Assembly: GCA_030646995.1 (NCBI GenBank)
Contig: JAUSKF010000002.1
Coordinates: 76,092 to 140,091 of the forward strand
DNA: 64,000 nucleotides
Source of the DNA: a bacterium
Lineage (GTDB): Bacteria > Patescibacteriota > Minisyncoccia > UBA6257 > WO2-44-18
Reading direction: 5' to 3'
The notes under the pieces were generated by a model. The model was not told where the DNA came from. It did not search any database and saw only the letters and a list, made by a program, of their open reading frames with translations. Below are positions 8,209-58,458 of this stretch, in pieces. The first letter of the stretch is position 1. Every line of letters starts with the position of its first letter. Position numbers and translations under genes: made by a program.

Positions 8209-9480
8209 ATGAATAAACTACTTCAAATCTTTAAAATTCCGGACCTAAGAAAGAAAGTTTTTTACGTTCTCTTGGGATTGGTAGCTTTCCGCATCCTTGG
8301 CGCAATCCCGATTCCGGGAATTGATGCCGCAAAGCTTGCCCAATTCTTTAATTCGAACCAAATTTTTGGCTTCTTCAACTTGTTTTCTGGTGGTGGTCTA
8401 ACCAATCTCTCCATCGTAATGTTGGGAGTCGGTCCATATATCACCGCCACAATCATCATGCAGTTGCTCACAATGATTTTCCCAAGCTTGAAAGTGATGT
8501 ACTACGAAGAGGGAGCGGCCGGCCGAGCTAAGTTCAATCGCATCTCCCGCTATCTCACTATTCCTCTAGCGGCTCTACAGGCATATACATTCTTAAAGTT
8601 GCTTGGTAGCCAAGGGATTCTAGGCACCCTAACACCACTAGAAGCCCTTCAAAATGTCCTCATTATTACTGCCGGTAGTATGCTCTTGACTTGGATTGGT
8701 GAATTAATCGGCGAGCAAAAAATCGGAAACGGAATCTCTCTTATTATCTTCGCCGGTATCATTAGCGCTCTTCCGACAGTCATTAAAAATACCGTCATCT
8801 CCTTTGATCCGGCGAATCTTCCTACCTACATCGCCTTCGCGATTCTTTCCGTGATTATTATCGCCGGAGTCGTCTTCGTGAACCAAGGAGAACGCAAAGT
8901 ACCGGTCTCATATTCCCGACGTATCCGAGGGAATAAAGTTTATGGAGGCTCATCCAGCTACTTACCGCTAAAAATTAACCAAGCGGGCGTAATCCCGATT
9001 ATCTTTGCCATTTCAATAATGCTTTTCCCGCAATTCTTTGCCCAAATTATTTCTCTTTTCGCGCCGGAGCCTGCGGCGACATTGCAAAACTTAATTAATC
9101 AATTCTTAAATAACCAATATATCTACAGCGCGGTCTACTTCACTTTGGTTGTCGCCTTCACTTATTTCTACACTTCGATCACTTTTGACCCCAAAGAAAT
9201 TGCAAAGAATCTCCAACAGAGCGGGGGATTCGTGCCGGGAATTCGCCCGGGCGAGCCAACCGGAGAATACATCGGCAATCTTACCAAGCGATTAACTTTG
9301 TTCGGAGCTTTATTCTTAGGCTTGATAGCAGTTTTGCCGAACCTGACCCAAATCCTTACGGGGGTGCAAACTTTAACTATCGGCGGCACCGGCCTATTGA
9401 TCGTGGTTTCGGTAGTATTGGAAACTATAAAGCAATTGGATTCGGAACTAACCCTCCGAGAATACGAGGGGATTCAGTAA
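8209..9480 (+). CDS. secY: preprotein translocase subunit SecY
   Basis: LGVGPYITA, GNGISL, PLKINQAGVIPIIFA, VPGIRPG, IGGTGLLIVV. Confidence 0.98.
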   Translation: MNKLLQIFKIPDLRKKVFYVLLGLVAFRILGAIPIPGIDAAKLAQFFNSNQIFGFFNLFSGGGLTNLSIVMLGVGPYITATIIMQLLTMIFPSLKVMYYEEGAAGRAKFNRISRYLTIPLAALQAYTFLKLLGSQGILGTLTPLEALQNVLIITAGSMLLTWIGELIGEQKIGNGISLIIFAGIISALPTVIKNTVISFDPANLPTYIAFAILSVIIIAGVVFVNQGERKVPVSYSRRIRGNKVYGGSSSYLPLKINQAGVIPIIFAISIMLFPQFFAQIISLFAPEPAATLQNLINQFLNNQYIYSAVYFTLVVAFTYFYTSITFDPKEIAKNLQQSGGFVPGIRPGEPTGEYIGNLTKRLTLFGALFLGLIAVLPNLTQILTGVQTLTIGGTGLLIVVSVVLETIKQLDSELTLREYEGIQ

Positions 9481-9533
9481 GGGCTCCGGGAATAGCCTCC
9501 GGCATGTTCCTCGAAACTATTCCCTGCGCTTTG
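9481..9533 (+). repeat. internally deleted copy of the GGGCTC...CGCTTTG structured repeat
   Basis: Matches both ends of the 21179-21326 copy (GGGCTCCGGGAATAGC and CTCCGGCATGTTCCTCGAAACTATTCCCTGCGCTTTG). Confidence 0.85.
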
Positions 9534-9544
9534 TATAATATTGA

Positions 9545-20183: not shown

Positions 20184-20392
20184 GGGCTCATCGGCATTTC
20201 TTTCAGGAACCCGGTCCGGCTAGAAAAAATAGATTCGCTCCGGTTGATTTTTGGGATAAATTGAACAGCTCCCGTTCCTCCCTTCGGGATTTTCCGGCCA
20301 TTCAATTTTTTAACCAAAAATCTGTCCTGCGCTCATTATTTTGGGCTAGCCTCCCCTTGTGGTTCCTTACAAAGAAATGCCGATTCGCTTTG
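20184..20392 (+). repeat. rod-like palindromic element with GGGCTC...CGCTTTG termini
   Basis: Nested inverted repeats ATCGGCATTTCTTT/AAAGAAATGCCGAT, AGGAACC/GGTTCCT, GGCTAG/CTAGCC, GATTTTTGG/CCAAAAATC, AAATTGAA/TTCAATTT. Confidence 0.7.
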
Positions 20393-21085: not shown

Positions 21086-21178
21086 GCAACTTCCTTTCAA
21101 AGTTTCTAGCAAGATTATAGCCACGATAAGGAAAAATGACAATGGCTCGGTCTAATTACTTACAAGAACTCGATCCTC

Positions 21179-21326
21179 CAAAGCGCAGGGAATAGTTTCG
21201 AGGAACATGCCGGAGGCGATTTTGCTTGGTTCGTTTGTTAATACAAACGAAAAATCGCCGAGGGAGAGGCAAATTTGCTCGCTGGAAGCAAATTATGCCG
21301 TTTCCGAGGGGCTATTCCCGGAGCCC
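21179..21326 (-). repeat. full-length structured repeat (GGGCTC...CGCTTTG family)
   Basis: Reverse complement is near-identical to 58299-58439 apart from one variable arm and the closing stem. Confidence 0.9.
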
Positions 21327-22346
21327 CTATCCGTGACGGAATTCGGTAACGTCCCCATCCTGAAACACATATTCTTTTCCTTCTAAGCGGAGCCAGCCTT
21401 TTTGCTTGGCAGAGCTCCAAGAACCGGCTTCTAATAGTTTTTGCCAGTTGATGACTTCAGCTCGGATGAATTTCTTTTCAAAATCGGTGTGAATAGCGCC
21501 GGCGGCTTGCGGAGCTTTGCTTCCCTGTCGGATCGTCCAGGCGCGAGATTCATCTGGTCCGGTAGTGAAGAAGCTCATTAGGCCGAGGATTTCATAAGCT
21601 TTTTTCACCAGCTCTGGAATTTCAGCGGCAGAAGAAAGATCAGACACCACATATCCCGCTCCCCTTTCGGCAATCTTTCCCTTCAAATCTTCAGACACAT
21701 CCTCCGGTTTGCCGTTCAATAAATAAACCTGCTTTTTCGCGGTGAGCAAATTTAGAGCGGAAACTTTTTCATTCTCCAAAGCCTCGGCAAATTCCGGAGT
21801 AGCCAAATTTTTCCCGGACTCCAATGCTTCTTTAACTTTTTTAATTGCTTCAAAATCTTTGATTGCCTGCTTTTGCGCGGGCCCGCCGGTTTTCGTGTCG
21901 CCTTCCGCTTTTTTATAAACTTTTTCTATTGAATCCAAATCTTTCAACCCCAGCTCGGCGTTGATAATCTCCATATCCCGAATTGGGTCAACCGAATTTT
22001 CCACGTGAATAATTTCACTACTCTGAAAAACACGAAGCACCATCAAGACCGCGTTGGTTTCGCGGATGTGGGTCAAAAATTTATTTCCCAAACCCTCTCC
22101 AGCACTCGCGCCCTTCACCAAACCGGCAATGTCGTAGAACTCCACTATGGCAGGAATGGTTTTCGCTGACTTACTCATTTCTGTAAGCTTGCTCAAACGC
22201 TCATCAGGAACGGTAACCACGCCTACATTCGGATCAATTGTGCAAAAGGGATAGTTGGCAATATTTACGTCATTTTTCGTGAGTATTTTAAAGAGCGTGG
22301 ACTTCCCCACGTTCGGCATCCCCACGATTCCGATAGATAATTTCAT
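21327..22346 (-). CDS. ychF: redox-regulated ATPase YchF
   Basis: GIVGMPNVGKST, ANYPFCTIDPN, DIAGLVKGAS.GEGLGNKFL, LRLEGKEY. Confidence 0.97.
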   Translation of the reverse strand: MKLSIGIVGMPNVGKSTLFKILTKNDVNIANYPFCTIDPNVGVVTVPDERLSKLTEMSKSAKTIPAIVEFYDIAGLVKGASAGEGLGNKFLTHIRETNAVLMVLRVFQSSEIIHVENSVDPIRDMEIINAELGLKDLDSIEKVYKKAEGDTKTGGPAQKQAIKDFEAIKKVKEALESGKNLATPEFAEALENEKVSALNLLTAKKQVYLLNGKPEDVSEDLKGKIAERGAGYVVSDLSSAAEIPELVKKAYEILGLMSFFTTGPDESRAWTIRQGSKAPQAAGAIHTDFEKKFIRAEVINWQKLLEAGSWSSAKQKGWLRLEGKEYVFQDGDVTEFRHG

Positions 22347-22419
22347 TCGCTTGATTATAGCCGATTTCAGTGGCAAAATAAAGCACGTTCGTTGAAAACT
22401 ACAAAGAACAGGAGGCGGG

Positions 22420-23532
22420 ATGAAACGAATCGTTCTGACTGGCGGACCTTGCGGTGGAAAAACCACAGGGAAAGAATATGTACGGGAAAAGCTGTTGAAT
22501 TATGGCCGCTCCCCTATCTTCGTTCCGGAGGTGGCAACACTAATCATTGGGTGCGGATTGAATCCTGGAGAACTGTCTCCGGAACAATATTTCGAATTCC
22601 AAAAACTTATCTTCAGCACCCAAATGAAATTTGAGGATGATATTTTCCTCAAAGCAGTAGAGATTAAAGCATCAAAAAAACCGATGATTATAATGGATCG
22701 GGGATTGATGGATGCCAAGGCTTATATGACTCCGGAAATGTTTGAGGCAGTGCTGAAAGATCACGGAATGGACGAAGTAGAGGCGCGGGATAAGCGTTAT
22801 GATGGCGTATTTCATTTGTCTACTGTAGCTGATGGCAAGCCAGAACTTTATAGTCAGGCAAATAATCCCTCCCGATTGGAAAAAACCCCGGAAGAAGCGG
22901 TATCTGCCGATCACAAGACGCGCAATGCCTGGCTTGGCCATCCGCATTTGCGAGTCATCGACAATTCCACAGACTTTGATCAGAAGATGAATCGTCTGTT
23001 GAACGAAATTCGGAGGTTGCTGGGAGATCCGGTTGCAATCGAAACCGAACGCAGTTTCGTGGTTCACGGAGGATTTCAGCTTCAGAAAATTCCTATTCCG
23101 TTCAAAAAAATCCACATCGAACAAGTTTATCTGAAGGGGAAAGCGGGAGAAGAAAGCCGGATACGCAGACGCAGTCAGGAAGATGCCGGTTCCGTCTACT
23201 ACGAAACCAGGAAACTGCCGGCCATTTCCGCCGCTTCTCGGCCGGAAAATGAATGGCAAATCTCCGCGAGGGAATACGCCAGCAAGCTTAGCTTGGCGAG
23301 TCCGGACCACGACATTGTCCGGAAAAATCGCTTCTGCTTCTTGTACAAAAATCAGTACTTTGAACTTGATAGGATTTTGGAACCGAAGCGACTATTTGGA
23401 CTCGTGCGCTTGGAAATTGAACTCACCGAAGAGAACGATAAGGTGGAAATTCCCGACTGGCTCGGGAAAGTCGAGGAAGTAACCGGCAATCCGAAGTGGA
23501 GCAACTACGAACTGTCCCGAAGGCCGAAGTAA
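22420..23532 (+). CDS. NadR/TTD14-like AAA_28 P-loop domain fused to a CYTH domain
   Basis: IVLTGGPCGGKTT, PEVAT, MDRG..D; C-terminal ETERSF, IEQVYL, RIRRR, ELD, LEIE, EEVTG. Confidence 0.85.
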   Translation: MKRIVLTGGPCGGKTTGKEYVREKLLNYGRSPIFVPEVATLIIGCGLNPGELSPEQYFEFQKLIFSTQMKFEDDIFLKAVEIKASKKPMIIMDRGLMDAKAYMTPEMFEAVLKDHGMDEVEARDKRYDGVFHLSTVADGKPELYSQANNPSRLEKTPEEAVSADHKTRNAWLGHPHLRVIDNSTDFDQKMNRLLNEIRRLLGDPVAIETERSFVVHGGFQLQKIPIPFKKIHIEQVYLKGKAGEESRIRRRSQEDAGSVYYETRKLPAISAASRPENEWQISAREYASKLSLASPDHDIVRKNRFCFLYKNQYFELDRILEPKRLFGLVRLEIELTEENDKVEIPDWLGKVEEVTGNPKWSNYELSRRPK

Positions 23533-45641: not shown

Positions 45642-45675
45642 TTGACTTACCCTAAAATTATAGCATTTTGCTAAT

Positions 45676-45824
45676 TAGTGCTGCCGAATAGCTTTCTCGG
45701 ACACAGCGTTGCTGGCCTCCGGCGGGCCAGCCCGCTTCTCTCTCGACAAGTTGTTTCGGCTAATCGCCGAAAACCAATCCAACTTGCCTCCGAGATGTTC
45801 CTTAAAAGCCATTCGGCAGCACTA
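45676..45824 (+). repeat. divergent member of the structured repeat family
   Basis: Terminal IR TAGTGCTGCCGAAT/ATTCGGCAGCACTA; retains CTCGGA, TCCGGCG loop, TCTCTCTCG, ACCAATC and CTCCG..ATGTTCCT. Confidence 0.75.
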
Positions 45825-45872
45825 GCGAATCAAACAAAAAACCTCCCTTGCGGGAGGTTAGTCTTGTTGCTG

Positions 45873-51240: not shown

Positions 51241-51255
51241 GGCGGTTTTTAGTTT
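51223..51255. terminator. bidirectional terminator
   Basis: AAACTAAAAAACGCC-TAA-GGCGGTTTTTAGTTT. Confidence 0.65.
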
Positions 51256-51276
51256 TGGTGCCGCGGGAGGGAATCG
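51256..51276 (-). repeat. displaced duplicate of the tRNA-Phe 3' end carrying CCA (att-like)
   Basis: Minus strand CGATTCCCTCCCGCGGCACCA; 51258-51274 is identical to 51455-51471. Confidence 0.9.
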
Positions 51277-51413
51277 CCTACAACTCTCGCCTCGCCGTCG
51301 CTCGGTTCGGTCGCAGGCCGCCCCTCGCGACCCCGCAAGCTTGCGGGGTATCGCTGCGTTCTTCAATATCCCTACGCGAGCCAAACAATTGGCTCGCTCC
51401 CGCCGCTACAAAC

Positions 51414-51450
51414 AAAAAATAAAGCGCCTTTTCGTGGCGCTTTATTTTTC
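51414..51450 (-). terminator. terminator after tRNA-Phe
   Basis: AAAAATAAAGCGCC-TTTTCGT-GGCGCTTTATTTTT. Confidence 0.7.
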
Positions 51451-51455
51451 TGTTG

Positions 51456-51761
51456 TGCCGCGGGAGGGAATTGAACCCCCGACGCCAGCCTCTTCCAAAG
51501 GCTAGTTGGACTATCTCATTCCCGTTCTTAAAAACTTAAGAGTGCGGGATCGGGCGCTATTGCAGGATTATTGTTGGGACTCACCTGCTAGTCTCTACAC
51601 CTTCCAGAAAACTTAAACCCTTTCTGGCTCGGCTCGGGATTGTCGTATGCATATTTTACTATACATCCGGTTTTCCCCGAATTCACCCAATTTTTCGATC
51701 CGCATTACTACGGAAGGCCCCAAAGATCTAGGGCTGCGCTCTACCACTGAGCTACCGCGGC
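51456..51761 (-). tRNA. trnF: tRNA-Phe(GAA), intron-containing; exons 51761-51730 and 51495-51456
   Basis: Joined exons fold as a cloverleaf: GCCGCGG TA GCTC AGTGGTA GAGC G CAGCC CT GAA GA GGCTG GCGTC GGGGG TTCAATT CCCTC CCGCGGC A. Confidence 0.93.
51496..51729 (-). ncRNA. group I self-splicing intron (234 nt) at tRNA position 33/34
   Basis: Follows U33 and ends in G; P AATTCGGGGAA, Q AATCCCGAGC, R GTAGAGACTA, S ATGAGATAGTCC; P1 GCCCU/GGGGC, P3 TTGGGTG/CGCCCGA, P7 GACTA/TAGTC. Confidence 0.92.
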
Positions 51762-51764
51762 ATA

Positions 51765-55411: not shown

Positions 55412-55484
55412 GGTCTCATCGTCTAGTTGGTCAGGACATACGGTTCTCATCCGTAAAACATGGGTTCGAATCCCATTGGGACCA
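55412..55484 (+). tRNA. trnE: tRNA-Glu(CTC), no encoded CCA
   Basis: Acceptor GGTCTCA/TGGGACC, anticodon arm TACGG-TTCTCAT-CCGTA, T arm ATGGG-TTCGAAT-CCCAT. Confidence 0.95.
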
Positions 55485-55630
55485 CAAAACTCAAAATAAA
55501 TCTGGGATTCGAACCCAGCAGCACACCGTGTTGGAAGGCGCTCGGAAACCAGAAGGTGTCCGAGACGGGGGTCGGGGTGCTGCGATAGTGGTTCGGCAAA
55601 CATTAGGCGGCAGCCTCAATGCGCAGCGAA

Positions 55631-55649
55631 AATCCCATTGGGACCACCA
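55631..55649 (+). repeat. displaced duplicate of the tRNA-Glu 3' end carrying CCA (att-like)
   Basis: AATCCCATTGGGACCACCA; 55631-55647 is identical to 55469-55485. Confidence 0.9.
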
Positions 55650-55652
55650 AAA

Positions 55653-58269: not shown

Positions 58270-58298
58270 AAAGTAGCAAGAAATCTTATTAAAGTCAA
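58270..58298 (-). promoter_or_regulatory. sigma70-type promoter for the SPFH gene
   Basis: TTGACT-17 nt-TACTTT, abutting the repeat at 58299. Confidence 0.6.
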
Positions 58299-58439
58299 GG
58301 GCTCCGGCCAATAGCCCCTCGGAAACGGCATAATTTGCTTCCAGCGAGCAAATTTGCCTCTCCCTCGCTTCGCCACTTTAGATAAGACCAAGCTGGCGAA
58401 GCTCCGGCATGTTCCTCGAAGCTATTGGCCTGCGCTTTG
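58299..58439 (+). repeat. full-length structured repeat (GGGCTC...CGCTTTG family)
   Basis: Shares a ~57-nt identical block and the CTCCGGCATGTTCCTCGAA block with the 21179-21326 copy. Confidence 0.9.
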
Positions 58440-58458
58440 TTATAATTAAGCGATACCG

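Follow-up and report, generated by a model that had tools for sequence, protein, structure and literature searches.

An uncatalogued dispersed repeat family whose three-way-junction core is common to CPR bacteria, Aminicenantes and Omnitrophota

Copies of the element in the window

The window, by which we mean the whole stretch of 64,000 nucleotides analyzed here, carries three full copies of a repeat of about 150 bases and the remnant of another (Table 1). A first-pass annotation had listed these four, and all of them, with every stem and motif quoted for them, were found where it had placed them. The copy at 58296..58445 folds on the minus strand into a three-way junction, with a closing helix (P1) and two arms: P3, which has a 7-nt bulge and an inner hairpin, and P2, which ends in a 7-nt loop. 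The CGGAG/CGAG motif that closes P3 is predicted to form tandem sheared G·A pairs.

The ychF-type gene (ORF 21327-22466, minus strand) is named from a relative in locus L078, and the fold of the adjacent copy is antisense to its mRNA. The name of the secY-like gene rests on its protein sequence and ribosomal-operon context, with no library match; the remnant at its stop codon has retained the foot and P1 and has lost both arms by a deletion between short repeats. The sister element, which was absent from the earlier list, has four related loci in the genome.

When compared with shuffled sequences, the three full copies folded far better on both strands, with z of -3.5 to -9.8 as RNA and -3.4 to -9.6 as DNA, while the 53-nt remnant at 9481 did no better than chance (z of -1.1 and -0.1). 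The divergent copy, listed earlier at 45676, lies within an 8550-nt contig of run X1, possibly the source sample, with 0 differences, and as far as could be tested it is not an assembly artefact.

Table 1. Copies of the element in the window, their parts and adjoining features
Feature	Position in window	Strand	Evidence or remark
Full copy (58299-58439 in the first-pass annotation)	58296..58445	-	139.7 bits; alignment, folding
P2 apical loop, conserved, CGCWGGA on folding strand	58340..58346	-	C, G, C, G, G each conserved in at least 90% of 76 diverse copies
P3 one-sided bulge, conserved, GCWTGGT on folding strand	58387..58393	-	covariation/conservation analysis
P3 arm, closed by near-invariant CGGAG/CGAG	58364..58406	-	alignment and covariation
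TTGAC (-35-like) hexamer start abutting element end	58294..58298	-	sequence
Full copy abutting stop codon of ychF-type GTPase gene	21172..21330	+	149.9 bits
Divergent full copy, perfected terminal inverted repeat, no terminal foot	45674..45831	-	130.8 bits
Remnant at stop codon of secY-like gene (ORF 8209-9480)	9478..9540	-	profile search, neighbor comparison
Sister element	20184..20392		same foot (CAA|GGGCTC ... TCGCTTTG) and P1, other rod-like interior

Covariation and the selected strand

To assess the fold, we used a sequence-only MAFFT alignment of 48 copies. Under the three-way-junction model 91.2% of 2227 cells pair, as opposed to 64.9% in shuffled and 35-51% in slid controls. The stems were said to change sequence while keeping their pairing, and this holds: both partners vary in 40 of 47 pairs, and none of 500 shuffles reached any of these measures (the counts ignore relatedness). 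Among 76 diverse copies, in an alignment fitted to the model, every one of the 36 pairs with the highest mutual information belongs to the model; the clear additional signals are a longer closing helix and one junction pair. A K-turn register and a pseudoknot between bulge and junction were considered and find no support in the covariation, which instead favors pair 39-102 and adds a single junction pair. Covariation between the loops was not detected in the 76 copies, whose loops may be too invariant to show any.

The invariant part of the element is a three-way-junction core of about 100 nt, fixed in CGGAG opposite CGAG, the one-sided bulge GCWTGGT, the apical loop CGCWGG and a small number of purines at the junction. 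The stems are free to vary with compensation, while the two loops and the junction stay constant across a class and into two other phyla. CTCGGA and ATGTTCCT, at first taken for conserved linkers, are in fact opposite sides of the closing helix and covary in distant copies.

The strand that had been folded at first proved to be the less favored one. Its reverse complement folds at lower energy in all 24 copies compared as RNA and in 23 of the 24 as DNA, and the stems of that folding strand contain 110 G·T cells versus 27 A·C (39 versus 19 when distinct column types are counted, p 0.012). The Aminicenantes form described below has a similar bias by cells (64 versus 27), but hardly any by distinct types (14 versus 12). 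Copies show no bias between leading and lagging strand (12 versus 16). C-GNA-G triloops are stable as DNA; the 87 inner hairpins of the folding strand include six of them, two GNRA loops and no UNCG, while 57 of the 87 inner loops are long and thus uninformative on DNA versus RNA. Covariation, the strand-specific excess of G·T and the fixed loops and junction all back the original suggestion that selection acts on a single-stranded fold.

Copy number and distribution

The host genome (751 kb, 98% complete) contains 25 full-length copies and three fragments in a search with a profile built from 24 of the full copies. A broader profile added three more divergent copies and weak matches to a fourth group, with none in a reversed-genome control, and a covariance model gave 29 matches. 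The element is therefore a dispersed repeat family of about 150 bases with about 30 copies in its host. Nearly all copies are intergenic; they nest in one another, composite copies occur too, and one CPR copy sits inside the read-through 3' end of an RT ORF.

Several other features came to light in these genomes. Two diversity-generating retroelements (DGRs; L005:2379-4100 on G000:C1, and G000:C4:101500-103900) have an accessory gene opposite in direction to the RT. At L005:2379-4100 the RT reading frame continues through an element copy, and the same place in G001 holds a different element copy. About ten further dispersed repeat families in G000 have 3-16 copies each, several of them with long branched folds, and one adjoins a GIY-YIG gene. 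A 20-bp palindrome (CCTGCCTGCCGG core) is inserted in the stems of many copies and also in coding sequence (L106, L107, L112, L114, L116, L293, L331).

The proposed search of CPR genomes with a covariance model found relatives in the class and beyond. Of 30 relatives of the host, 18 were positive with 1-34 matches each and 12 had no copy. The core is present in at least 42 of 150 other genomes of the class and at least 9 of 150 of the phylum, which are lower bounds because the large searches scored few candidates per genome. A pattern scan of a genome collection returned at least 120 loci matching the core pattern, and 53 of the 80 tested score with the model, with E-values that are inflated by the pattern selection. 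The records behind these 53 include 9 under the title Aminicenantes, 8 under Eubacteriales and 2 under Omnitrophota. Full complementary stems, and a CPR-titled locus (L374) with nearly the same P3 arm, support the view that the distant loci are homologous to the CPR core. The 'Eubacteriales' records (L335, L342, L354, L364, L381, L389, L395, L414) carry the Aminicenantes subfamily almost unchanged; their titles may be wrong, or this MITE may recently have crossed between phyla.

In a viral collection, none of the 80 loci tested out of at least 119 pattern loci matched the model, and the core pattern had no match; the phage and plasmid collections gave none either. Rfam 15 returned no family at the gathering threshold and only chance-level matches in E-value mode, so the suggested check against described RNA families turned up none. 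No description of the family was found in the accessible literature, ISfinder not included, although large surveys of MITEs or ncRNAs (e.g. PMC11602168) might list it unnamed. The family, first reported as unrecognized and MITE-like, is a real and uncatalogued one with a core common to CPR, Aminicenantes and Omnitrophota, and in Aminicenantes it has MITE anatomy.

Docking sites and ends of the CPR copies

Next to CPR copies, the two ends of the element behave differently. In 38 of 110 copies a long ORF ends with its stop codon directly at the 3' end of the folding strand, as against 9 of 113 for the other end (p 1e-6); the same 3' end borders GTCAA, which is the TTGAC box in reverse complement, in 14 of 115, as against none (p 8e-5). 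Because docking is by one end, the folding strand is usually antisense to the neighboring mRNA (at 38 stop codons, versus 9 where it is the mRNA strand), and the promoter points away. The flank is a variable C/T-A-A/G. At the secY-like stop codon, four of the five genus genomes carry different members of the superfamily and one carries none, and a genome of another family also has a copy after the same gene; the ends of rpoD, clpP and rplK are recurrent sites likewise. CPR copies thus dock by one end, and one copy takes another's place at a given site. Beyond the secY-like and ychF stop codons, species differ in the genes that follow.

At L078:1764-1840 the last ten ychF codons occur a second time, 70 bases downstream and immediately in front of a copy, which looks as though recombination had replaced the end of the gene.

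Target duplications are rare in CPR. Terminal repeats together with a duplication occur in 2 of 181 copies (null 0.4%), both of them low-complexity or internal, and all four window copies lack this signature. Direct repeats of 9 bp or more flank 5 of 153 copies, compared with a null of 2.1%, and the only convincing case is a tRNA duplication: a divergent subfamily follows tRNA-Arg genes, and two of its three copies are associated with a duplication of 18-19 bp of the tRNA 3' end. Terminal repeats of at least 12 bp, perfected or extended, are found in 7 of 153 copies (null 0.04%). Among the matches listed for four runs, whose contigs drop rare variants, there were no empty alleles or excision joints at the four window copies; since no clean pair of empty and filled alleles was found, the boundaries of CPR copies given here are those that we infer.

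Other structured repeats also adjoin tRNA genes in the window. At 55412-55650 a tRNA-Glu gene is followed by a structured repeat that opens with an antisense copy of the T arm of this very tRNA and closes with about 20 bp duplicated from the tRNA 3' end; the family of this repeat follows at least four other tRNAs of the genome, with arm and duplication matching each tRNA's own sequence. The stretch at 51255-51763 (minus strand) includes a tRNA gene missed by ARAGORN. A group I intron-like sequence (RF00028, 41 bits, less than the gathering score) splits this gene, and after the gene come another structured element and about 17 bp duplicated from the tRNA 3' end.

The core inside MITEs outside CPR

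In four Aminicenantes-type genomes, which have 29-56 BLAST matches each to the subfamily, the core is part of a 200-bp unit with terminal repeats that start G(T/G)AAGCATC. A 9-bp target duplication (at least 8 of 9 bases matching) flanks 13 of 29 copies, with a null of 0, and 9 of 31 copies have a -35-like box at a distance of 16 bases from one end. The same terminal repeats also enclose other interiors. An Omnitrophota copy (L352) has different terminal repeats, of 13 bp, and an exact 9-bp duplication. Overall, the signature of terminal repeat plus duplication was detected in 4 of 17 copies outside CPR, versus the 2 of 181 within it.

Mobility of the core is thus directly shown in Aminicenantes. 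Since the same core sits in MITEs with differing ends, it is mobile outside CPR and independent of the type of end. Three end modules were seen: the duplication-free foot of CPR, the tRNA 3'-end duplication of the divergent subfamily, and terminal inverted repeats with a 9-bp duplication. The Aminicenantes ends point to a DDE transposase acting on double-stranded DNA, which would not need the interior fold. The GTAA end of this form, which we took as a hint of IS66, led to no mobilizer: the IS66 transposase is present in 1 of 17 genomes and its ends do not match. In 26 regions around unpaired Aminicenantes ends, judged by eye, there was no transposase-like ORF.

Search for a mobilizing enzyme

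Genes beside the copies were examined by Pfam scans of 125 and of 117 neighboring ORFs (the latter being 117 out of 166 listed), which revealed housekeeping genes and no recurring mobile gene; clustering of 1171 neighboring ORFs of 164 matches likewise showed none that recurs. The exceptions, each near a single copy, are one DGR RT, one small GIY-YIG gene and one tyrosine recombinase. All the genomes are incomplete to some extent, with 85-98% completeness for those searched for Y1 and TnpB. A scan of the host genome's ORFs for the HUH motif found no transposase-like protein. Y1/RAYT genes are absent from all five genus genomes and from three others with 14-20 copies (G005, G007, G018), and a Y1 HUH transposase is present in 9 of 31 genomes, three of which lack the element. 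In five copy-rich genomes neither an IS110 recombinase nor a TnpB domain was found. A Y2 transposase (IS91/ISCR) was detected in none of five genomes, but the control genomes were silent too. HNH genes occur in three of five genomes, none beside a copy.

RTs fare no better. None was found in four genomes with 11-18 copies (G007, G013, G014, G028), all three family members without copies have one, and the element adjoins a DGR RT in only two genomes. We therefore rejected an RNA associated with an RT (of a DGR, retron or group II intron), as the element shows no consistent linkage to RTs or co-occurrence with them. A guide RNA, one of the roles first suggested, finds no backing here, in that among TnpA/RAYT, TnpB, IS110, HNH and RT genes there is none that is repeatedly adjacent to copies or follows their distribution over genomes. 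An integron-like array was suspected in G059 and dismissed, since its clustered copies lie between housekeeping genes.

Small GIY-YIG genes occur in 31 of 31 genomes, and because they are everywhere their presence is uninformative. The host genome has five of them together with ComEC. None of the five is flanked by the element; the nearest copy is 525 bp off, and the gene there adjoins a different repeat. As a separate observation, two small GIY-YIG genes (G000:C1:8136-8339 and G000:C2:97319-97531) lie between a duplicated 5' part of a tRNA and the intact tRNA gene.

Interpretation

We favor, with moderate confidence, a non-autonomous mobile module that is recognized as folded single-stranded DNA by a trans-acting protein encoded elsewhere. 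This view starts from the fold and its strand, the polarity of docking, the turnover at recurrent sites and the interchangeable ends, all of which were observed. The element would spread as non-coding mobile DNA whose working form is ssDNA rather than RNA, a preference that draws on the antisense placement and, weakly, on the triloop counts. New copies would arise by cutting and joining in trans at C/T-A-A/G sites, and the insertions that survive would be those at the borders of genes and promoters. Natural transformation, with conserved gene ends as anchors, may carry copies between relatives and so aid the spread; we suggest this step because ComEC is present and the ychF end is duplicated in L078. 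A substrate for ssDNA transposition had been among the initial suggestions, and it is the one that we retain as probable, although the search yielded no gene to mobilize it. Against it stand this failure to find a candidate enzyme, the DDE-type ends outside CPR and the lack of a replication-strand bias, which a mechanism using ssDNA at the replication fork would predict.

The G·T bias and the tandem G·A pairs fit RNA equally well, and the core could instead be a functional RNA on the folding strand (a ribozyme, processing signal or antisense regulator) that is carried by various mobile ends. Its deeply conserved unpaired loops, its tight and purine-rich junction and the G·U-type bias would all suit such a role. 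So would its retention in MITEs: because the same terminal repeats carry other interiors, the core is not needed for MITE transposition, and yet it is kept there. There is also a precedent in bcr1, which PMC3184786 describes as a transcribed mobile repeat with compensatory changes. We nevertheless regard this reading as possible but doubtful, given that the folding strand is so seldom the mRNA strand at stop codons and that adjacent -35 boxes face away from the element. The Rfam search, the missing UNCG loops and the lack of detectable covariation between the loops (perhaps too invariant for it) also speak against it. The hammerhead core is CUGANGA...GAAA, and it occurs in 0 of 158 copies on either strand, which rejects that ribozyme; with no Rfam match and a mostly antisense placement, the ribozyme proposed at the outset gained no positive support.

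Template switching yields perfected palindromes, and the element might be no more than an ordinary, worn MITE in which such correction produced the paired changes and from which the ends have been lost in CPR. The classical anatomy in Aminicenantes and L352 and the perfected or extended terminal repeats of several CPR copies (the 7 of 153 above) agree with this. However, template switching would erase mismatches, and yet bulges and G·A motifs have survived in different phyla; nor would it favor one strand, whereas G·T outnumbers A·C four to one. Near-identical CPR copies lack duplications as well, and the combined signature is far rarer in CPR (2 of 181) than outside it (4 of 17); we consider a worn MITE unlikely. 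Also unlikely, in our estimate, is a host signal for recombination or transformation, like the NTS/Ssn system of Neisseria, that marks gene ends with swapped cargo. The five small GIY-YIG genes and ComEC, the differences between species in what follows the secY-like and ychF stops, and the duplicated ychF C-terminus before a copy in L078 would accord with it, as would the cutting of ssDNA at hairpin repeats by Ssn (PMC11893778). Yet no GIY-YIG gene in the host genome is flanked by the element, compared with a motif in 71% of Ssn regions according to the same text, the CGTC tag is near an end in very few copies, and 12 of 30 relatives manage without any copy.

A bolder reading, which we think improbable, makes the core an autonomous device. 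It would be either a natural catalyst made of ssDNA or RNA or a fold on which a host recombination protein universally docks; it would plug into hairpin tips, borrow whatever ends are at hand and in this way have spread to at least three phyla. In small bacterial repeats it is usually the ends that are conserved, being what a transposase reads; in this family the interior fold stays the same from phylum to phylum, and what varies is the ends and, apparently, the chemistry of insertion. If the core is catalytic or binds a host protein, it would represent a novel type of mobile module; otherwise the family still counts as an unannotated repeat carried by more than a quarter of the class genomes sampled. 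The family also offers a handle on the old question of what mobilizes structured repeats such as RPE, bcr1 and ERIC where the genome has no cognate transposase: the young Aminicenantes form gives exact boundaries, and the CPR form gives hundreds of diverged sequences for structure work.

Comparison with known systems

The attC sites of integrons lie in cassette arrays and have the ends RYYYAAC/GTTRRRY, which 0 of 158 copies have, and the neighbors of the element are housekeeping genes. An IS110 bridge RNA was rejected as well, since the loops of the element are invariant and not matched to targets.

Comparisons with other repeats are by description, as given in the papers cited. The bcr1 repeat of the Bacillus cereus group is about 155 bp long and mobile, with positions not conserved between strains; it has a branched fold in which two stem-loops are kept by compensatory changes, carries 5-bp direct repeats and is reported to be transcribed and confined to one species group (PMC3184786). 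Our element resembles it in length, mobility and a branched fold with compensatory changes, and differs in its duplication (none in CPR, 9 bp elsewhere), in a fold antisense to mRNA and in its occurrence in three phyla. REP/REPIN sequences, mobilized with RAYT (Y1 HUH), are intergenic, polar hairpin repeats without duplication, with a TAG stop codon often falling at their termini (PMC3733652, PMC3184786). CPR copies are likewise intergenic, polar, free of duplications and found at stop codons, but the element is five times longer and branched, the copy-richest genomes have no Y1, and a fixed GTAG tag at the hairpin foot is present in only 15 of 158 copies.

The Ssn nucleases, of the GIY-YIG type, act at the NTS hairpin repeats of Neisseria, and the SRMs are 20-50 nt long, CGTC-led and flank the nuclease gene (PMC11893778). 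The two are alike in having oriented hairpin repeats and a genome that encodes ComEC along with several single-domain GIY-YIG proteins; the element differs in being neither CGTC-led (the tag is close to an end in no more than 5 of 158 copies) nor placed beside a GIY-YIG gene. Rickettsia palindromic elements (RPEs) are palindromic repeats of 100-150 bp in small host-dependent genomes, often in frame inside genes, and the accessible text of PMC10969869 names no mobilizer for them. They are comparable in being palindromic, of this scale and in a small genome, whereas copies of our element are nearly all intergenic. Finally, classical prokaryotic MITEs have terminal repeats of 10-15 bp or more and target duplications of 2-10 bp (PMC11602168, PMC10969869). 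The 200-bp Aminicenantes form and the Omnitrophota copy L352 fit this definition; CPR copies lack the signature and conserve the interior fold rather than the ends. In its way of working the family resembles the bcr1, REP/REPIN, RPE and MITE repeats, and only its forms outside CPR qualify as classical MITEs.
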